Shown: in pieces, positions 16,843 to 44,605 of the stretch
Layout of the letters: every line of letters begins with the position of its first letter
How positions within the stretch are numbered: the stretch's first letter is position 1
Made by a program: the position numbers and the translations under genes
Notes under the pieces: generated by a model
What the model saw: only the letters and a program-made list of their open reading frames with translations
Database searches by the model: none
Told to the model about the DNA's origin: nothing
Virus record (IMG/VR): IMGVR_UViG_2547132255_000004
Strand: one strand, 5' to 3'
Length of the DNA: 44,605 nt
Origin: a virus
Taxonomy: Duplodnaviria; Heunggongvirae; Uroviricota; Caudoviricetes

Positions 16843-17925
16843 TTAGAACTGATAAACCAGACCTACAGCGACGATGTCGTCGGTATCAATACCAGCTGTT
16901 TTGGTAAACTTACTATCGTCAATTAAGTTGATTTTGTAATCAACAAAAGTGGACATGTTTTTATTAAAGTAGTAAGTAGCACCGACATCGACATACTTGA
17001 CTAAGTCTCGGTCACCATGAACACCAAGGTCTTTACCTTTTGACTGAAGGTAAGCAACAGATGGTCGCAGACCGAAGTCAAACTGATATTGTGCTACTGC
17101 TTCAAAGTTTTGTGCTTTGTTTGCAATATGGTTATTACCAAAAACGGTCATATTCTGAGTTTCAGAATATGTGGTAGCCAGATAGATATTGTTCGCATCA
17201 TATTTCAGGCCTGCAGCCCATACTTCCGCATTTTTGCCGGAGGCATTGAATTTGCTCTTACCATAGGCGACCTGACCGTCAGTGCGATCTGATTTAGCAT
17301 AGGTTGCACCCACGCCGAATCCTTCATACTCATAAGTAGTGGAGAAACCGAAACCATCACCATTGGCTTCAGTTACGTCAGTGCGGTCATTTTTACCCTG
17401 ATACTGAGCAGCAAAGTTCAGGCCATCGACCAGACCAAAGAAGTCGTTGTTACGATAAGTTGCAACACCAGTAGTGCGACCAGTCATGAACACATCTGTT
17501 TGGGTCCAGGTATCACCACCGAATTCTGGCAGGACGTCAGTCCACGCACCGATGTCGTATGCTACACCGTAGTTACGGCCGTAATCGATTGAGCCGTAAT
17601 CACCAAATTTCAGGCCTGCAAATGCAAGACGGGTTTTGTCTTTGGAAGAACCTTGAGATTCAGCACGGTTGCCTTTGAATTCATATTCCCACTGACCGAA
17701 ACCAGTCAGTTGATCGTTGATTTGGGTTTCACCTTTGAAGCCAAGACGGGCATAAGTAGTATCACCATCATCTGCATCATTAGAGGAGAAGTAGTGCTTG
17801 GCATTAACTTTCCCGTATAGATCCAGCTTGTTACTGTCTTTATTATAAATTTCAGCTGCCTGAGCAGACATCGCCATCAGTACTGATGCAGCTACAGCAG
17901 AAATTGCCACTGTTAATTTTTTCAT
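16843..17925 (-). CDS. nmpC: Outer-membrane general porin, OmpC/OmpF family (NmpC/Lc-type prophage porin)
   Basis: 360-aa protein with signal peptide ([23 protein letters not shown]), porin motifs and C-terminal ...VAVGLVYQF; located between Q and the holin as nmpC is in DLP12. Confidence 0.92.
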
Positions 17926-19418: not shown

Positions 19419-19952
19419 ATGAACGTAAAAATCAGATACGGCCTGTCGGCTGCTGTTCTGGCGCTGATTGCCGCAGGCGCGTCTGCTCCTCAGATACTTG
19501 ACCAGTTTCTGGACGAAAAAGAGGGTAACCACACAAAGGCATACCGCGATGGTTCCGGCATATGGACCATTTGCCGGGGTGCCACGGTGGTGGATGGTAA
19601 ACCTGTTATTCCGGGCATGAAACTGTCGAAGGAAAAATGCGCCCAGGTTAACGCCATTGAGCGGGATAAGGCGCTGGCATGGGTGGAGCGTAATATAAAA
19701 GTTCCACTGACCGAGCCACAAAAAGCAGGTATCGCGTCATTTTGCCCCTATAACATTGGCCCCGGTAAGTGTTTCCCGTCGACGTTTTATAAGCGGCTTA
19801 ATGCCGGTGATCGTAAAGGTGCCTGTGAGTCGATTCGCTGGTGGATTAAGGACGGTGGGCGTGATTGCCGCACACGTTCAAATAACTGCTACGGACAGGT
19901 TATTCGTCGTGACCAGGAAAGCGCATTAGCCTGTTGGGGGATAGATCAGTGA
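19419..19952 (+). CDS. R: Endolysin, lysozyme family (RrrD-type, with N-terminal signal-arrest-release-like hydrophobic segment)
   Basis: 177-aa protein; N-terminal hydrophobic stretch ([16 protein letters not shown]) then E...D...T catalytic triad context ([22 protein letters not shown]); matches DLP12 RrrD from memory. Confidence 0.9.
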
Positions 19953-20410
19953 GAAGAGTTGCCGCGATTATCTCCGCTCTGGTTATCTGCATCATCGTCT
20001 GCCTGTCTTGGGCTGTTAATCATTACCGCGATAACGCGATTACCTACAAAGCCCAGCGCGACAAAAATGCCAGAGAACTGACGCTGGCGAACGCGGCAAT
20101 TACTGACATACAGATGCGTCAGCGTGATGTTGCTGCGCTCGATGCAAAATACACGAAGGAGTTAGCTGATGCGAAAGCTGAAAATGATGCTCTGCGTGAT
20201 GATGTTGCCGCTGGTCGTCGTCGGTTGCACATCAAAGCAGTCTGTCAGTCAGTGCGTGAAGCCACCACCGCCTCCGGCGTGGATAATGCAGCCTCCCCCC
20301 GACTGGCAGACACCGCTGAACGGGATTATTTCACCCTCAGAGAGAGGCTGATCACTATGCAAAAACAACTGGAAGGAACCCAGAAGTATATTAATGAGCA
20401 GTGCAGATAG
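19934..20410 (+). CDS. Rz: Spanin inner-membrane subunit Rz
   Basis: Protein ...[49 protein letters not shown]...YINEQCR recognised as near-identical to lambda Rz. Confidence 0.92.
20169..20351 (+). CDS. Rz1: Spanin outer-membrane lipoprotein subunit Rz1, embedded in Rz in the +1 frame
   Basis: 60-aa ORF with lipoprotein signal (MLPLVVVGC) and proline-rich mature part ([18 protein letters not shown]), as for lambda Rz1. Confidence 0.85.
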
Positions 20411-20441: not shown

Positions 20442-20735
20442 TTATTGTGAGCAATACACACGCGCTTCCAGCGGAGTATAAATGCCTAAAGTAATAAAAC
20501 CGAGCAATCCATTTACGAATGTTTGCTGGGTTTCTGTTTTAACAACATTTTCTGCACCACCACAAATTTTTGCTGCATCGACAGTTTTCTTCTGCCCAAT
20601 TCCCGAAACGAAGAAATGATGGGTGATGGTTTCCTTTGGTGTTACTGCTGTAGGTTTGTTTCCAACAGTAAACGTCTGTTGAGCACATCCTGTAATAAGC
20701 ATTGCCAGAGCGGCAGAAAACAACATTTTTTTCAT
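20442..20735 (-). CDS. bor: Bor lipoprotein (serum-resistance outer-membrane lipoprotein)
   Basis: MKKMLFSAALAMLITGCAQQTFTVGNKPTAVTPKETITHHFFVSGIGQKKTVDAAKICGGAENVVKTETQQTFVNGLLGFITLGIYTPLEARVYCSQ recognised as lambda Bor; opposite strand to the lysis genes. Confidence 0.9.
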   Translation of the reverse strand: MKKMLFSAALAMLITGCAQQTFTVGNKPTAVTPKETITHHFFVSGIGQKKTVDAAKICGGAENVVKTETQQTFVNGLLGFITLGIYTPLEARVYCSQ

Positions 20736-21215
20736 CTTATTATCCTGCATTGTTAAAAACGGCAGAATCCTATGTGACAACAATTAAACGATAGTTAAAT
20801 GGATTGATGAAAATTAAAACTACACAGGTGGGCTCAGACTATTGGAGGAAGTTGGGGACACTCAGAATCCTGTGGAATGAAATAAACCGGTCTATCCGTC
20901 CATTACCCTTTTAGCTGCGCTGTATCGTCGCCGTATTCCCGCATTAACCATGACCGTAGCCCGACGGGGAATTCCTTCTGCGTGAGTGTGCGGGAATAAT
21001 TAAAAACGATGCACACCGGGTTTTTACCGCGTTAATGATTCGCGGGTTTATCCCGGTGCGATGGTGGAAGAAACAGGAAGCTGTATTACAGAAAGTGCTA
21101 CTACTGTATCCCGATGCGATGTATGTAATGTGAGTCAGATAATGGCACAGGATGTGGTGATGTGGCAGTCTGGAACACAGGATATATTGTCAGAATAAGA
21201 CCCGTAGGAATAAAA

Positions 21216-21542
21216 ATGAAAAGACGCCTTTTACTACTTTTTCTGTTATCTGTCCTGGCAGTGGGATGCTCGCAGCAAAAAGCTGATGAGCCCCGGCAAT
21301 TAGTGACGGTGTATCCACGATATCCGGAATATGCTGCAGCAAATTATATCAAGGGGCTGGTTGAGGTTAAGTTCGATATTGGTGCTGATGGGACTGTGAC
21401 ACGGATCGTTTTTCTCCGCTCAGAGCCTCATAATTTGTTTCGTGATGAAGTGGTGAAGGCCATGGCGAAATGGCGATTTGAAAAGAATCGCCCCTGTCAG
21501 GGAGTGAAGAGACAATTTATCTTTACGCCGTCACGTCCTTGA
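21216..21542 (+). CDS. Lipoprotein with TonB C-terminal-like domain
   Basis: Lipobox LLSVLAVGC after a basic N-terminus (MKRRLLLLF); mature part YPRYPEYAAANYIKGLVEVKFDIGADGTVTRIVFLRSEPHNLFRDEVVKAMAKWRFEK follows the TonB C-terminal domain pattern (YP..A......G.V.V.F.V..DG.V.......S.......F..EV..AM..WR.EP). Confidence 0.65.
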   Translation: MKRRLLLLFLLSVLAVGCSQQKADEPRQLVTVYPRYPEYAAANYIKGLVEVKFDIGADGTVTRIVFLRSEPHNLFRDEVVKAMAKWRFEKNRPCQGVKRQFIFTPSRP

Positions 21543-21664
21543 TGCTTCCAGATAGAGAGGGGCTGGAAGCAGGAGAAAAATGAAAGAGCCAGCGGTTATA
21601 TTTTTGTCATGGCTGACGAGGAATGATGGAAGAAGGCGTTGTATGCCACACAACGCCTCACTGT

Positions 21665-22018
21665 TCATTTCTTCTTTTTCTCTGGTGGAACCCGATGAAT
21701 AAGAGTTGCACTGGTTTCCGATGAGATGGCGATATACTCGGGCAAAGTATGCTGGCAGTTTTCCAACTGGTCAAAAATACCTGCTCTCGTCTGTTGCAAT
21801 GCCTGCAGCATGCGGCGGCAATGCGCCTTGCTTTTACTAACCATCTTTCCTTCCTCTATCAGTCGCTGCGTGAACTCATCATGGAATACCAGGTAAATGC
21901 GGATGTTATCGGTTTTGGCTACGCAGCATAGTACAAAACGGGCAGGTGCATCCCGGGACGGGGGAGGCGTCACATGTCCCTGTGATGGTTGTTCCGGGTA
22001 ATGTACTGTGTGGGGCAT
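21665..22018 (-). CDS. Hypothetical ORF (117 aa) adjacent to cos; true extent uncertain
   Basis: ORF-track ORF; overlaps the next ORF in another frame; the two may be parts of one frameshifted gene. Confidence 0.3.
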   Translation of the reverse strand: MPHTVHYPEQPSQGHVTPPPSRDAPARFVLCCVAKTDNIRIYLVFHDEFTQRLIEEGKMVSKSKAHCRRMLQALQQTRAGIFDQLENCQHTLPEYIAISSETSATLIHRVPPEKKKK

Positions 22019-22157
22019 AAAAATGTCCGATAATTTTACTTTCTACCGCAGTTAGTTGATTCGTTGGTCCTGGTAGCACATTGGGCGAGGATTTAAATGC
22101 CAGGCAACTGAAGGATGATGTCGCAAGGGAGATAGCGAGAATATTTCTGATTTTCAT
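21906..22157 (-). CDS. Hypothetical secreted protein (about 84 aa, signal peptide MKIRNILAISLATSSFSCLA)
   Basis: Internal Met of ORF 21906..22226 gives a signal-peptide-like N-terminus; overlaps ORF 21665..22018. Confidence 0.3.
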   Translation of the reverse strand: MKIRNILAISLATSSFSCLAFKSSPNVLPGPTNQLTAVESKIIGHFYAPHSTLPGTTITGTCDASPVPGCTCPFCTMLRSQNR

Positions 22158-22299
22158 TTGATGATGCCTCTGTGTGAAATGACGGTAAACGACGCACTTG
22201 TGCCGGCACATAATAGCAAGCACCATAATAGATCAGATTCGATTCTTGCTGTAAGTGATAATTATTCTCGTTTTCGGGTCCTTTCCGTCGATCCAACAG

Positions 22300-22494: not shown

Positions 22495-23014
22495 ATGGAA
22501 GTCAACAAAAAGCAGCTGGCTGACATTTTCGGTGCGAGTATCCGTACCATTCAGAACTGGCAGGAGCAGGGAATGCCCGTTCTGCGAGGTGGTGGGAAGG
22601 GTAATGAGGTGCTTTATGACTCTGCCGCCGTCATAAAATGGTATGCCGAAAGGGATGCTGAAATTGAGAACGAAAAGCTGCGCCGGGAGGTTGAAGAACT
22701 GCGGCAGGCCAGCGAGGCAGATCTCCAGCCAGGGACTATTGAGTACGAACGCCATCGACTTACGCGTGCGCAGGCCGACGCACAGGAACTGAAGAATGCC
22801 AGAGACTCCGCTGAAGTGGTGGAAACCGCATTCTGTACTTTCGTGTTGTCGCGGATCGCAGGTGAAATTGCCAGTATTCTCGACGGGATCCCCCTGTCGG
22901 TGCAGCGGCGTTTTCCGGAACTGGAAAACCGACATGTTGATTTCCTGAAACGGGATATCATCAAAGCCATGAACAAAGCAGCCGCGCTGGATGAACTGAT
23001 ACCGGGGTTGCTGA

Positions 23015-23040
<26 letters not shown>
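22495..23040 (+). CDS. nu1: Terminase small subunit Nu1
   Basis: 181-aa protein MEVNKKQLADIFGASIRTIQNWQEQGMPVLRGGGKGNEVLYD... recognised as lambda Nu1. Confidence 0.95.
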
Positions 23041-37817: not shown

Positions 37818-40800
37818 ATGGGTAAAGGCAGCAGTAAGGGGCATACCCCGCGCGAAGCGAAGGACAACCTGAAATCATCCCAGATGCTGAGCGTGATAGA
37901 CGCCATCAGTGAAGGGCCGATTGAAGGTCCGGTGGACGGATTAAAAAGTGTGCTGCTGAACAGTACGCCAGTGCTGGACAGTGAGGGGAATACCAATATC
38001 TCCGGTGTCACGGTGGTTTTCCGGGCAGGTGAGCAGGAGCAGACACCGCCGGAGGGATTTGAATCCTCCGGCTCCGAGACGGTGCTGGGTACGGAAGTGA
38101 AGTACGACACGCCGATTACCCGGACCATCACGTCTGCAAACATCGACCGTCTGCGCTTTACCTTCGGTGTGCAGGCACTGGTGGAAACCACCTCAAAGGG
38201 GGACCGGAATCCGTCGGAAGTCCGCCTGCTGGTTCAGATACAGCGTAACGGTGGCTGGGTGACGGAAAAAGACATCACCATTAAAGGCAAAACCACCTCA
38301 CAGTATCTGGCCTCGGTGGTGGTGGGTAACCTGCCGCCGCGCCCGTTCAATATCCGGATGCGCAGGATGACGCCGGACAGCACCACAGACCAGCTGCAGA
38401 ACAAAACGCTCTGGTCGTCATACACCGAAATCATCGATGTGAAACAGTGCTACCCGAACACGGCACTGGTCGGCGTACAGGTGGATTCGGAGCAGTTCGG
38501 CAGCCAGCAGGTGAGCCGTAATTATCATCTGCGCGGGCGTATTCTGCAGGTGCCGTCGAACTATAACCCGCAGACGCGGCAATACAGCGGTATCTGGGAC
38601 GGAACGTTTAAGCCAGCATACAGCAATAACATGGCCTGGTGTCTGTGGGATATGCTGACCCATCCACGCTACGGCATGGGGAAACGTCTTGGTGCGGCGG
38701 ATGTGGACAAATGGGCGCTGTATGTCATCGGCCAGTACTGCGACCAGTCAGTGCCGGACGGCTTTGGCGGCACGGAGCCGCGCATCACCTGTAATGCGTA
38801 CCTGACCACACAGCGCAAGGCGTGGGATGTGCTCAGTGATTTCTGCTCGGCGATGCGCTGTATGCCGGTATGGAACGGGCAGACGCTGACGTTCGTGCAG
38901 GACCGACCGTCGGATAAGGTGTGGACCTATAACCGCAGTAATGTGGTGATGCCGGATGATGGCGCGCCGTTCCGCTACAGTTTCAGCGCCCTGAAAGACC
39001 GCCATAATGCCGTTGAGGTGAACTGGATTGACCCGAACAACGGCTGGGAGACGGCGACAGAGCTTGTGGAGGATACGCAGGCCATTGCCCGTTACGGTCG
39101 TAACGTCACGAAGATGGATGCTTTTGGCTGTACCAGCCGGGGGCAGGCACACCGCGCCGGGCTGTGGCTGATTAAAACAGAACTGCTGGAAACGCAGACC
39201 GTGGACTTCTGCGTGGGCGCAGAAGGGCTTCGCCATGTGCCGGGCGATGTCATTGAAATCTGTGATGATGACTATGCCGGTATCAGCATCGGCGGGCGCG
39301 TGCTGGCGGTAAACAGCCAGACCCGGACGCTGACGCTCGACCGTGAAATCACGCTGCCATCCTCCGGTACCACGCTGATAAGCCTGGTTGACGGAAGTGG
39401 CAATCCGATCAGCGTGGAGGTTCAGTCCGTCACCGACGGCGTGAAGGTGAAAGTGAGCCGTGTTCCTGACGGTGTTGCTGAATACAGCGTGTGGGGGCTG
39501 AAGCTGCCGACGCTGCGCCAGCGCCTGTTCCGCTGCGTGAGTATCCGTGAGAACGACGACGGCACGTATGCCATCACCGCCGTGCAGCATGTACCGGAAA
39601 AAGAGGCCATCGTGGATAACGGGGCGTACTTTGACGGCGACCAGAGCGGCACGGTGAATGGTGTCACGCCGCCAGCGGTGCAGCACCTGACCGCCGAAGT
39701 CACCGCAGACAGCGGGGAATATCAGGTGCTGGCGCGCTGGGACACGCCGAAGGTGGTGAAGGGCGTGAGCTTCCTGCTCCGTCTGACCGTAACAGCGGAT
39801 GACGGCAGTGAGCGGCTGGTCAGCACGGCCCGGACGACGGAAACCACATACCGCTTCAGGCAACTGGCGCTGGGGAACTACAGGCTGACAGTCCGGGCGG
39901 TAAATGCGTGGGGGCAGCAGGGCGATCCGGCGTCGGTATCGTTCCGGATTGCCGCACCGGCAGCACCGTCGAGGATTGAGCTGACGCCGGGCTATTTTCA
40001 GATAACCGCCACGCCGCATCTTGCCGTTTATGACCCGACGGTACAGTTTGAGTTCTGGTTCTCGGAAAAGCGGATTACCGATATCAGGCAGGTTGAAACC
40101 ACAGCCCGCTATCTTGGTACGGCGCTGTACTGGATAGCCGCCAGTATCAATATCAAACCGGGCCATGATTATTACTTTTATATCCGCAGTGTGAACACCG
40201 TTGGCAAATCGGCATTCGTGGAGGCCGTCGGTCGGGCGAGCGATGATGCGGAAGGTTACCTGGATTTTTTCAAAGGCAAGATAACCGAATCCCATCTCGG
40301 CAAGGAGCTGCTGGAAAAAGTCGAGCTGACGGAGGATAACGCCAGCAGACTGGAGGAGTTTTCGAAAGAGTGGAAGGACGCCAACGATAAGTGGAATGCC
40401 ATGTGGGGCGTCAAAATTGAGCAGACCAAAGACGGCAAACATTATGTCGCGGGTATTGGCCTCAGCATGGAGGACACGGAGGAAGGCAAACTGAGTCAGT
40501 TTCTGGTTGCCGCTAACCGTATCGCATTTATTGACCCGGCAAACGGGAATGAAACGCCGATGTTTGTGGCGCAGGGCAATCAGATATTCATGAACGACGT
40601 GTTCCTGAAGCGCCTGACGGCCCCCACCATTACCAGTGGTGGCAGTCCTCCGGTATTTTCCCTGACATCAGACGGAAAGCTGACCGCTAAAAATGCGGAT
40701 ATCAGTGGCAGTGTGAATGCGAACGCCGGGACGCTCAACAATGTCACGGTAAATGAAAACTGTACGATTAAGGGCATGCTGGAGGCGACTCAGGTCAGAG

Positions 40801-41231
40801 GTGACTTCGTTAAAGCTGTATCCAAATCATTTCCGAAACAGGCTGGTACGTGGGGTAACACGGAAACACCAAACGGGACGGTTACAGTCACCATCAGCGA
40901 TGATCATAACTTTGACCGTCAAATCATTATTCCGCCCATTATCTTTAACGGAATAGCGTATAGCGATCCGGGAAGTGGTAATAACCCGGGAGGTACAAGA
41001 TACACGGGTTATGGTTTTGAAGTTCGCAAAAACGGTGTATTAATCGCATCCAGAGAAACTAAAGGGGCCATTCCCGGTAGCTACAGTGCGGTTATTGATA
41101 TGCCGAGTGGCAGGGGAAGCGTCACTCTGGAGTTTAAGGTTTTCCATAAAGGCAATCAGTGGGCAGGTAATATCACCGACTGTACGGTGATTGTGACCAA
41201 AAAAGCCGCTTCCGGCATCAGTATTCGTTGA
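37818..41231 (+). CDS. J: Central tail fibre / host-specificity protein J; C-terminal receptor-binding region differs from lambda
   Basis: 1137-aa protein; N-terminal roughly 1000 residues are lambda J-like, but the last roughly 130-150 residues (...[54 protein letters not shown]...[14 protein letters not shown]) do not match the lambda LamB-binding C-terminus as I recall it. Confidence 0.9.
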
Positions 41232-41958: not shown

Positions 41959-44024
41959 GTGAATATGGCAGTAAAGATTTCAGGTGTACTGAAAGACGGC
42001 ACAGGAAAACCGGTACAGAACTGCACAATCCAGCTGAAAGCAAAACGTAACAGCACCACAGTTGTGGTGAACACGGTGGCCTCAGAAAATCCGGATGAAG
42101 CCGGACGTTACAGCATGGATGTTGAGTATGGCCAGTACAGCGTCGCCCTGCTGGTTGAAGGTTTTCCGCCTTCACATGCCGGGACCATCACCGTGTATGA
42201 GGATTCTAAGCCGGGGACATTGAATGATTTTCTGGGCGCTGCAACAGAAGATGATGTTTGTCCGGAGGCACTGTATCGTTTTGAAAAGATGGTGGAAGAG
42301 GCGGCACGCAACGCTGAAGCCGCCTCTCAGAGCGCAGCGGCAGCAAAGAAATCAGAAACAGCAGCGGCATCGTCCAGGAACGCGGCGAAAACATCAGAGA
42401 CGAATGCAGGTAACAGCGCGAAAGCGGCAGCTTCTTCAAAAACAGCCGCACAAAACGCAGCAACAGCGGCAGAACGTTCAGAGACAAATGCCCGTGCGTC
42501 AGAAGAAGCCTCCGCAGACAGTGAAGAGGCTTCCCGCCGTAATGCAGAGTCAGCCGCTGAAAATGCCGGAGTCGCCACCACAAAAGCGCGGGAGGCCGCA
42601 GCAGACGCAACAAAGGCCGGGCAGAAAAAGGATGAGGCTCTGTCGGCAGCGACACGAGCTGAAAAGGCGGCAGACCGCGCAGAAGCCGCAGCGGAAGTGA
42701 CTGCAGAGCCCTGTGCGAATATAGTGCCGCCGCTGCCTGATGTGTGGATACCGTTTAACGATTCACTGGATATGATTGCGGGTTTTTCTCCGGGCTATAA
42801 AAAAATAGCTATTGGTGACGATGTGGTTCAGGTCGCCAGTGATAAACAGGTTAATTTCAGTCGCGCATCAACGGCAACATATATCAACAAATCTGGCGAA
42901 CTGAAAACGGCGGAAATTAATGAGCCGCGATTTGAGTGTGATGGCCTGCTTATTGAGGGACAAAGAACGAACTACATGCTCAATTCGGAAAGTCCAGCCA
43001 GCTGGGGGAAGTCATCAAACATGGATGTGCCCGAAACCGGGACGGATAGTTTTGGTTTTACTTATGGAAAGTTTGTCTGCAACGATTCTCTGGTTGGGCA
43101 AACTTCGGCTATTAATATGGCATCAATTGCTGCAACAAAGTCAGTTGATGTCTCAGGCGATAACAAGTACGTGACAACCTCATGCCGTTTTAAAACAGAA
43201 CGACAGGTAAGGTTACGTATACGGTTTGATAAGTATGATGGTAGTGCAACAACTTTTCTTGGCGATGCGTACATTGATACGCAAACGCTTGAAATTAGTA
43301 TGACAGGTGGTGCTGCCGGCAGAATTACGGCACGAGTCAGGAAGGATAAGACCACGGGCTGGATTTTTGCAGAGGCAACGATTCAGGCAATTGATGGTGA
43401 GTTAAAAATAGGCTCTCAGATACAGTATTCTCCTGGGCAGGGTGGGGCAACAGTATCTGGTGACTATATTTATCTTGCCACCCCACAAGTAGAGAATGGG
43501 CCGTGTGTATCATCATTTATTATTTCAGGAGGCAGCGCAACGACAAGAGCCAGTGATTTGGTTAGTATCCCCACCAGAAATAATCTTTATAAGTTACCAT
43601 TTACTTTTTACTTGAGATTCATAAAAACTGGGATATTGCACCAAACGCCGCACCCCGCGTGTGGGATATAGCAGCAGCCAATACCGGGCAATCAGCAATT
43701 GCAGCAATCAACAGAGGTAGTGGTAAGTTATATATGAGTCTGTCAAACCCTTCAGGCTCGTATGTTAATAGCGCAGCGACAGATGTATTTGCAGAGAAAA
43801 CCACATTTGGATGTATTGCAAAAGCTGATGGTCACTTTCATGTGGTGACAAATGGTAAAGCGGTTAATGAAGTTTATTGTGAATATAATGGCGTGACCGC
43901 TGATAAAAATATCCGATTTGGAGGGCAGACGAATACTGGAGAACGACATCTGTTTGGCCATATTCGCAATTTCCGCATATGGCATAAAGAATTAAATGAC
44001 AGGCAATTAAAAGAGGTCGTATGA
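41959..44024 (+). pseudogene. stf: Side tail fibre gene stf, split into 570-aa and 121-aa ORFs by a frameshift at an A5 run (about 43623-43627)
   Basis: N-terminus MAVKISGVLKDGTGKPVQNCTIQLKAKRNSTTVVVNTV... plus Ala/Ser-rich repeat region matches the lambda Stf N-terminal part; protein-like translation continues in the +1 frame (NWDIAPNAAPRVWDIAAANTG...NFRIWHKELNDRQLKEVV) right after the A-run. Confidence 0.65.
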
Positions 44025-44299
44025 AAGATTTAACTTTGAAGTTTCATGACAAACTGCAGTTTAAGGCCTTCCTGTCATCTCTTGGCTGGGCGGAAGATGA
44101 AGACCTCCAGAATAAACTGTTAGTTGATGAAATTGGTTTCACCTACACAGAAACAGGGGTAACAGAAGAGGGAGAACCTGTCTGTATCCGGAATGATGGT
44201 TATTTTGTCAACATTCGCATTCTTGATGACTTGTTTGATGTTTCTGTATTCTCTGATTATGTCGTGGAGCTGGAAACACCGCTTCGGGAATGGAGCTGA
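44021..44299 (+). CDS. Hypothetical 92-aa acidic protein downstream of stf
   Basis: ORF overlapping the stf end; in the position where lambda has tfa but not Tfa-like by eye. Confidence 0.4.
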   Translation: MKDLTLKFHDKLQFKAFLSSLGWAEDEDLQNKLLVDEIGFTYTETGVTEEGEPVCIRNDGYFVNIRILDDLFDVSVFSDYVVELETPLREWS

Positions 44300-44311: not shown

Positions 44312-44605
44312 ATGGATATAAGCCCCTTACTTCATGCACTTTGTGCTGTGGCTGCGCAGATACTGGTTGGTCTTTTTACCGGAAACTGGGCTTACGGAGC
44401 GATAGCCGGTTGTACGTTCTTCATTGCGCGTGAACATACCCAGGCAGAATATCGCTGGATTGAAATGTTCGGGCATGGCAAGCGAATGAATATGCCGTGG
44501 TGGGGCGGTTTTGATCCGCGAGCTTGGGATGTGGCAAGCCTGATGGATTTTGCTGTGCCGGTGGTGGCGTGTCTGCTGGTCTGGCTGTTGGTTAATCGTG
44601 GGTGA
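44312..44605 (+). CDS. Hypothetical small membrane protein (97 aa, two predicted TM segments)
   Basis: Hydrophobic N-terminal (LLHALCAVAAQILVGLF) and C-terminal (LMDFAVPVVACLLVWLLV) segments; RBS AGGAGG upstream; stop at the window end. Confidence 0.45.
   Translation: MDISPLLHALCAVAAQILVGLFTGNWAYGAIAGCTFFIAREHTQAEYRWIEMFGHGKRMNMPWWGGFDPRAWDVASLMDFAVPVVACLLVWLLVNRG

Follow-up and report, generated by a model that had tools for sequence, protein, structure and literature searches.

A prophage lipoprotein built on the TonB C-terminal domain, a candidate decoy for TonB-dependent import

The DNA analyzed here is IMG/VR virus record IMGVR_UViG_2547132255_000004, a stretch of 44,605 nucleotides that we refer to as the window and that is a lambda-like prophage of Escherichia coli. 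We focused on one plus-strand gene (21216..21542), recognized from the open reading frame (ORF) list and from profile and database matches, which encodes a 108-residue exported lipoprotein with a TonB C-terminal (TonB_C) domain only. The ORF starts with ATG at 21216, runs for 108 codons, and stops at 21540-21542. A Shine-Dalgarno-like AGGA can be read 6 nt 5' of the ATG (21206..21209, plus strand), and the phage 21 record has a ribosome-binding site annotated at the equivalent relative position. On the same strand, the gene encodes in turn a lipoprotein signal peptide, MKRRLLLLFLLSVLAVG, with a predicted lipidated Cys18 (21216..21269), a short tether, SQQKADE, from the lipid anchor to the folded domain (21270..21290), the TonB_C domain at residues 26-103 (21291..21524), and a C-terminal tail, TPSRP (21525..21539), which in the alignments takes the place of the last nine residues of TonB, KINGTTEIQ. 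The tether was delimited by low predicted local distance difference test (pLDDT) values at the N terminus of our structural model and by its position ahead of the start of homology at TonB residue 153.

The original prediction, made from the letters alone, had proposed a lipobox followed by a TonB C-terminal domain, and both assignments were borne out. The protein matched Pfam TonB_C (PF03544) over residues 33-99 with an E value of 7.3e-13 and 49.2 bits (cutoff, 24.6), and it matched the TIGR01352 tonB_Cterm model with 47.4 bits (cutoff, 27.1). A phmmer search against the Protein Data Bank (PDB) returned the E. coli TonB C-terminal domain, 1u07, with an E value of 1.4e-14 over residues 24-103. 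Phage residues 23-103 aligned without gaps to E. coli TonB residues 150-230, and 33 of the 81 positions were identical (40.7%); this computed alignment agrees with the one given with the prediction. The domain carries the YP motif of TonB (Y36 and P37), and of its aromatic residues, Y36, F53, F75, and W86 are identical to those of TonB, with F88 standing for TonB Y215. In TonB numbering, Y163, F180, G186, F202, W213, and F230 are retained and Y215 is changed to F. The beta-3 strand, VKRQFIF, is also retained and corresponds to the TonB strand that pairs with TonB boxes.

An AlphaFold2 model built from a 32-sequence alignment had a mean pLDDT of 89.3 and a predicted template modeling (pTM) score of 0.77. 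An earlier AlphaFold model, made from 11 near-identical sequences, reached a pLDDT of 55 and was used only for the order of the secondary-structure elements. The 32-sequence model superposed on the free TonB domain 1u07_A with a TMq of 0.90 and a root mean square deviation (rmsd) of 1.4 Å, on BtuB-bound 2gsk_B with a TMt of 0.94 and 1.1 Å, and on FhuA-bound 2grx_C with 0.9 Å. The top 11 PDB matches were all TonB-type C-terminal domains, either of TonB or of the TonB homologue FusB, with TMq values up to 0.90 and rmsd values of 0.9-1.6 Å, apart from one at 3.2 Å. Profile searching and superposition on TonB were the two computational checks proposed with the original prediction, and both came out in its favor. 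A chance resemblance to the TonB domain is excluded by the profile, sequence, and fold evidence. In the viral structure library, no counterpart to the model was found at an E value of ≤0.001, and none of the PADLOC defense-system models matched the protein at an E value of ≤1.

The phage domain is homologous to the E. coli TonB C-terminal domain (about residues 150-239; PDB 1U07, 1XX3, 2GSK, and 2GRX) and shares its alpha/beta fold, with differences in the region around Q160 and in the tail. The KxNG-type tail of true TonBs is likewise missing from the alignments of all members of the short family described below. Compared with full-length TonB, the phage protein has a lipoprotein signal in place of the transmembrane anchor, the spacer, and the coupling to ExbB-ExbD. 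As had been foreseen, the 108 residues contain neither an N-terminal transmembrane anchor nor a proline-rich spacer, and TonB homology begins at TonB residue 150. Against the TonB equivalog models NF008080-NF008084 (cutoffs, 265-448 bits), the protein scored 44.8-69.2 bits, with an alignment confined to the C-terminal 70-85 residues. Judged by its sequence, the protein is not a TonB energy transducer, since no anchor or spacer would link it to ExbB-ExbD.

The N terminus, MKRRLLLLFLLSVLAVGC followed by SQQ, satisfies the lipobox rule of PROSITE PS51257, which places the lipidated cysteine at residue 18. The +2 residue is serine, and hence there is no aspartate retention signal. Under the +2 sorting rule, lipoproteins with a residue other than aspartate at this position go to the outer membrane. 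Because of the serine at +2, we predict that the protein resides in the inner leaflet of the outer membrane. The lipobox and a serine, threonine, or alanine at +2 are kept throughout the prophage clade of short TonB_C proteins, and other clades, such as those of Serratia and Erwinia, have ordinary signal peptides instead. Members of this family therefore appear always to be exported.

The existence of the gene was already known. The identical protein is annotated in E. coli 536 (WP_000830178.1; RefSeq name, "TonB family protein"), in phage 21 (CPT_21_73, "TonB C-terminal domain protein"), and in phage Perceval ("TonB fragment"), and it also occurs in ev017 and in ECOR prophages. A 72%-identical allele is found in Stx1a phages and JLK-2012, and a 41.5%-identical relative is found in a Klebsiella phage. 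We counted complete E. coli genomes at a DNA identity of at least 95% and found the gene in 1,225 of 5,426, annotated as "TonB family protein." Carriers include the extraintestinal pathogenic strain 536 and the adherent-invasive strain LF82.

For a comparison of loci, 80 viral contigs were kept. The gene lay between Rz (with or without bor) and terS in all 80, and the protein was identical in 71 of them. The flanking modules varied, with identities of 33-95% for lysozyme, 68-97% for Rz, 37-100% for terS, and 65-100% for terL. In a Klebsiella phage, a Rahnella prophage, and a Salmonella prophage, the same slot is filled by relatives with 32-47% identity, and the lysis cassettes ahead of it are quite different. 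The gene is a mosaic cassette that moves independently of its flanking modules.

Compared with the 72%-identical allele of the Stx phages, the window allele had a dS of about 1.4 (saturated) and a dN of 0.18, giving a dN/dS of 0.12-0.13. The gene is under purifying selection and is a working gene. In RNA sequencing of uninduced LF82, the identical Perceval gene, LF82_160, was transcribed 8-fold over the prophage background, compared with 11-fold for cI (PMC9928086). The published expression, together with the slot and the selection found here, indicates that the gene behaves as a lysogen-expressed prophage accessory gene (moron).

An exhaustive HMMER search returned 2,795 proteins at an E value of ≤0.001, mostly ordinary TonB. 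Many of the best matches, however, were proteins of 107-152 residues that aligned from the first residue, and all of these had an export signal. Homologues with the same architecture and 31-47% identity occur in other genera. In a rough neighbor-joining tree, the window protein grouped among the short exported proteins and apart from enterobacterial full-length TonBs, and the short proteins of Serratia, Klebsiella oxytoca, and Proteus formed a separate clade. Lipoprotein P0139 grouped with true TonBs, which suggests that the short family has more than one origin. The Serratia and K. oxytoca clade (P0085, P0120, P0185, P0187, and P0188 and the ORFs of loci L021, L029, and L042) has an additional conserved tail at the C terminus, which ends in G(V/I)PFR. 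In other members the ending is looser, [LV]P[SY]R; that of the window protein is PSRP.

Genomes were also scanned with a Serratia-type alignment. Of the 53 loci that this gave, most held full-length tonB of Yersinia, Photorhabdus, and Xenorhabdus and were excluded. A module of three genes was found in Serratia: about 70 bp upstream of a gene for colicin-E1-type immunity lies, in the same orientation, a gene for an exported TonB_C-only protein, and both converge on a gene for a pore-forming colicin. This module is present on chromosomes and plasmids (L009:8001-10510, L010:7001-9447, L015, L016, and L148), with hosts that include S. ureilytica, S. grimesii, S. bockelmannii, a contig of Serratia sp. 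BIGb0234 with plasmid-type genes, and conjugative Serratia plasmids. It is kept while the colicins are 70-74% identical and the TonB_C proteins 79-82% identical. The colicin N terminus contains PDDGDSMTVTG, in which GDSMTV resembles a TonB box; the TonB box of colicins B and D is DTMVV. The TonB_C gene of P0085 occurs by itself (L012:7001-7372 and L013:1840-5300) at a chromosomal site where other strains have the colicin module. In one contig, this lone gene adjoins a gene with a SIR2_2 domain, which suggests a variable conflict island.

A second arrangement was found in K. oxytoca, K. grimontii, and K. michiganensis. Here, 57 bp separate a TonB_C-only gene from a following gene, which encodes a 130-residue TolA C-terminal-domain protein with a lipoprotein-like N terminus and a Pfam TolA match at an E value of 7e-14. 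This pair (L029:5911-6783; also L021 and L042) sits between der and the protealysin/xseA region. The C-terminal domains of two energy transducers, both without an anchor, are thus neighbors at these loci.

Drawing on analogy with TonB, we think that the most likely function of the prophage lipoprotein, with a probability of about 0.5, is that of a dominant-negative TonB_C decoy. On this proposal, a moron would produce a lipoprotein that is placed, by prediction, in the outer membrane. On a tether of about 8-10 residues, an entire TonB C-terminal domain would be kept next to the TonB-dependent transporters, on their periplasmic side. There, the domain would occupy the TonB boxes of FhuA, FepA, Cir, BtuB, and other transporters and/or those of incoming group B colicins; in a less likely variant, it would pair with TonB's C-terminal domain. 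The decoy would carry no energy from ExbB-ExbD. In either variant, TonB-dependent translocation would be lowered, and the sensitivity of the lysogen to TonB-dependent phages (T1/phi80-like), colicins, and microcins would fall. We infer both the TonB-box binding and the protective phenotype by analogy.

Published work on TonB offers a precedent. In the structures reported, a TonB box, whether from a transporter or from a colicin, adds as a strand to the domain's three-stranded sheet, near residue 160 (PMC11658791, PMC9249621, and PMC2533080). An overexpressed periplasmic TonB domain is described as inhibiting TonB-dependent iron import (PMC9841981, citing Howard 2001), and a TonB-box pentapeptide is described as lowering colicin killing and phi80 infection (PMC9841981, citing Tuckman & Osburne 1992). 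Such engineered fragments (Howard, Herrmann, Stratilo & Braun 2001, J Bacteriol 183:5885), which are reported to interfere with TonB-dependent transport, are anchor-less and periplasmic like the phage protein. They differ from it in being soluble, overexpressed, and derived from TonB itself, whereas the phage protein is natural, diverged, and predicted to be lipid anchored. The decoy interpretation is plausible, and it is strengthened by the selection on the gene, the conservation of its slot, the published expression, and the contexts of its relatives.

Several points weigh against a decoy. The region around Q160 differs from that of TonB by R158T, N159V, Q160Y, Q162R, and R166Y. Genetics has linked this segment of TonB to TonB-box recognition, and because its residues differ in the phage protein, TonB-box binding cannot be assumed. 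In the published work, periplasmic TonB fragments had to be overexpressed to be inhibitory. A TonB-box decoy would have to be abundant, because transporters far outnumber TonB, and the measured transcription is modest. A general block of TonB would also cost the host siderophore and B12 uptake. In a consensus scan of the plus strand beside the gene, we found no sigma-70 promoter or terminator, and the total counts equaled the shuffled expectation. A GATAATG upstream of the gene looks like part of a Fur box by eye, but only about 10 of 19 positions match and it was not counted. Our search of the literature, including the genome announcement of phage 21, found no functional study of the lipoprotein.

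The contexts of the relatives carry cautions of their own. This evidence was gathered in clades other than that of the window protein, and the family as a whole may, by the rough tree, have arisen more than once. The Erwinia relative lies at a chromosomal site without phage genes, which is uninformative, and other relatives, including two in Klebsiella plasmid settings, are also in uninformative contexts. Proteus and Acinetobacter-plasmid relatives adjoin kinase, phosphatase, and TerY-type genes. At one Klebsiella plasmid locus, the gene lies beside an Exc2-family lipoprotein gene, a cloacin immunity gene, and a truncated cloacin gene. However, this cloacin-remnant block was found in only 13 plasmids, and small cloacin plasmids are without the TonB_C gene; the plasmid-cloacin link in Klebsiella is weak.

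We compared the tail tips of carrier phages. The J gene of the window lies at 37818-41231 on the plus strand, and the C-terminal 250 residues of its product are 96% identical to those of phage 434, 100% identical to those of Perceval, and 54% identical to those of phage 21. Phage 434 uses OmpC as its receptor. Because the tail tip matches that of phage 434, any block would fall on other phages and on colicins. Since the identical TonB_C gene is present in phage 21, whose J tip is only 54% identical, the gene is by this comparison not tied to the receptor of its carrier. Exclusion through the phage's own receptor was rejected on the same differences in J tips. As targets, colicins and microcins are no less likely than phages. 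The work of Howard et al. in 2001 is said to have found that phi80 infection and colicin M killing were inhibited as well.

The original prediction had likened the protein to the superinfection-exclusion lipoproteins Cor and Llp. Cor (phi80, N15, and HK022) and Llp (T5) are small phage lipoproteins that sit in the inner leaflet of the outer membrane, as the TonB_C lipoprotein is predicted to do. They act on TonB-dependent transporters from the periplasmic side; both are specific for FhuA, which is also the receptor of their own phages, and give protection against phages entering through it (bioRxiv 10.64898/2026.03.26.714494). Cor and Llp have one distinctive fold between them, and such folds were reported to be common in the viral structure library (bioRxiv 10.64898/2026.03.26.714494). 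The likeness holds for function only. Sequence and fold are unrelated, as the TonB_C lipoprotein matched only the TonB_C and PHROG 1267 families, and exclusion would not run through the carrier's own receptor (J tips 96% versus 54%). Cor and Llp each act on one receptor, whereas the TonB_C lipoprotein would act on the shared TonB box and has carriers that differ in their receptor-binding tips.

TolA domain III offers another parallel. It is the C-terminal domain of a transducer and the periplasmic target of group A colicins and of the g3p of filamentous phages, and it is distantly similar in fold, with weak Foldseek matches to our model. TolA is part of Tol-Pal rather than of the TonB system, and the window has no TolA-like gene. 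Periplasmic TolA domain III reportedly confers colicin tolerance, a finding attributed to Levengood-Freyermuth et al. in 1993.

We considered four other explanations. In the first, the same damping of TonB-dependent transport would serve physiology and not defense: siderophore, heme, and B12 uptake would be throttled, and SitABCD would be supplied as a TonB-independent importer of iron and manganese. The benefit could be less iron-driven oxidative damage or a smaller intake of toxic host-derived ligands in the gut or in macrophages. SitABCD, as an inner-membrane importer, should not need TonB. The sitABCD genes (Fe/Mn ABC importer) are present in the same prophage type, namely, in phage 21 (L153:7468-10001), in the E. 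coli 536 prophage (L154:2662-6111), and in Perceval. In these three, sitABCD directly follows two small ORFs that end the window (44021-44299 and 44312-44605), that is, it would begin just past 44605. A TonB-independent metal importer and a putative TonB inhibitor thus share one prophage type. Moreover, sitABCD and the TonB_C gene are both lysogen-expressed accessory genes in LF82, and the neighboring accessory genes (porin and bor/iss) have envelope or virulence functions. However, we saw no sit operon in the stretches of Klebsiella, Rahnella, and Salmonella prophages that we read, the co-occurrence may only mirror the common ancestry of three related phages, and the colicin-linked and TolA-paired relatives indicate conflict rather than metal homeostasis. 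We therefore consider this explanation unlikely. For the decoy reading, the presence of sitABCD in carrier prophages may be an offset of the cost of a TonB block, or it may be mere shared ancestry.

Improbable to a like degree is an envelope or virulence lipoprotein, in which the TonB_C fold would serve some purpose other than TonB-box binding, such as attachment to peptidoglycan or another outer-membrane protein, and contribute to envelope stability or serum resistance, as Bor/Iss does. This would fit the cluster of envelope accessory genes in the prophage (porin, 16843-17925; bor, 20442-20783), the residues of the Q160 region, which are unlike those of TonB, and the existence of TonB_C-like domains in proteins with other roles, such as AgmX/PglI, to which the protein has a weak NCBIfam match. 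The 40.7% identity to the E. coli TonB domain and the kept aromatic cluster instead favor a retained TonB-type surface, and the contexts of the relatives concern colicin import. The bor/iss moron of lambdoid phages does share several traits with the TonB_C gene: it occupies the same slot between lysis genes and cos, encodes an envelope lipoprotein, and is expressed from the prophage. It belongs to an unrelated family, is linked to serum resistance, and lies on the opposite strand.

A late lytic function, either as a spanin-type lysis accessory or as a blocker of progeny adsorption to debris, as Llp is for T5, appears very improbable. It would account for the match to PHROG 1267 (E=5e-43; window 21216-21539), a family labeled "Rz-like spanin," and the orientation of the gene, directly after the lysis genes in the direction of the late operon, implies that it should also be made late. 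Against this, the prophage has its own spanin pair, an Rz gene (19934..20410, plus strand; Pfam Phage_lysis, E=8e-54) with an embedded Rz1 (20169-20351; lipobox, VVVGC). Because this pair is complete, the TonB_C lipoprotein is not needed as a spanin. An outer-membrane spanin is short and proline rich and is paired with, or embedded in, the gene of the inner-membrane spanin, whereas the TonB_C protein is separate and globular; spanin identity was rejected on these two grounds. The identical gene also occurs with different J tips and so does not track a TonB-dependent receptor of its own phage, it is transcribed in lysogens, and it has relatives outside prophages. Since the prophage has a separate Rz/Rz1 and the members of PHROG 1267 are TonB_C lipoproteins, the label is best read as an annotation error that arose from position and lipobox and is likely to spread. 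Finally, a functionless remnant of a captured tonB gene, as the "partial" or "fragment" annotations of LR597643 and OV696612 would have it, has next to no chance of being correct and was rejected, given a dN/dS of 0.13 across saturated synonymous divergence, the intact reading frame and ribosome-binding site with an added lipoprotein signal, the identity in most viral contigs and presence in more than a thousand complete genomes, and the homologues of the same architecture in other genera.

The TonB_C lipoprotein is best classed as a candidate among the prophage lipoproteins that close outer-membrane entry routes. If it is a decoy, it would represent a broad-spectrum form of prophage exclusion that acts through a motif common to all TonB-dependent transporters and not through one receptor. 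It could then influence susceptibility to TonB-dependent therapeutic phages, to the colicins and microcins of gut competition, and to siderophore-conjugated antibiotics that use these transporters for entry, as well as the acquisition of iron in infections. Testing the idea would be inexpensive, as the identical gene is found in phage 21, a classical laboratory phage. We also put forward, tentatively and with well under even odds, that anchor-less exported TonB_C proteins (and, in Klebsiella, TolA_C proteins) form a widespread and unrecognized class of "import decoys" on prophages, colicin plasmids, and chromosomal islands of Enterobacterales, which shut TonB or Tol entry to phages and bacteriocins. 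Were this so, the Serratia TonB_C protein would add a second layer of immunity, at the level of import, to that given by the classical immunity protein. Relatives that are linked to colicins or paired with TolA would widen the notion of bacteriocin immunity from toxin neutralization to a block of import. About a quarter of complete E. coli genomes carry the prophage member, which would then influence sensitivity to colicins, microcins, siderophore-antibiotic conjugates, and therapeutic phages.

Among sequenced phages, Perceval of E. coli LF82 is closest to the window, spanning 65% of its first 25 kb with 98% identity. The gene order in this part of the prophage is Q antiterminator, porin (minus strand), holin, lysozyme, Rz/Rz1, bor/iss (minus strand), the TonB_C gene, Nu1, and terminase A. 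The porin, of the OmpC/NmpC type, lies between Q and the lysis genes (16843..17925, minus strand; Pfam Porin_1, E=2e-151). A phage-supplied porin might change or replace the prophage's own receptor, given a J tip like that of phage 434. The TonB_C gene sits 800 bp 3' of the spanin pair, past bor. The bor/iss lipoprotein moron lies directly upstream on the opposite strand (20442..20783, minus strand; PHROG 260 and Pfam Lambda_Bor) and is annotated as iss in E. coli 536. The best sigma-70-like site of the region (TTAACC, 16 nt, TG-TATAAT; 10 of 12 positions) lies inside the TonB_C gene on the minus strand, at 21343-21370, and points to bor. It may be due to chance, as the number of such sites was not above that in shuffled sequences. 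The accessory-gene slot is limited downstream by the gene for the terminase small subunit, Nu1 (22495..23040, plus strand; Pfam Phage_Nu1, E=9e-101).

Two putative tiny ORFs travel with the TonB_C gene. One, of 45 codons (21061..21198, plus strand), was found in 73 of the 80 viral loci and is a hypothetical protein in phage 21; the other, of 40 codons (21580..21702, plus strand), was found in 72 of the 80. Both are 95-100% identical wherever they occur, and all loci that have them carry the window-type allele. Neither ORF had a Pfam or PHROG match. Between the TonB_C gene and cos, there are also two minus-strand ORFs, 21906-22226 and 21665-22018. One of them has an internal start resembling a signal peptide, MKIRNILAISLATSSFSCLA, and the last 59 residues of the other match PHROG 4843. 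In this same region, RefSeq instead annotates a 60-residue ORF on the plus strand in strain 536.

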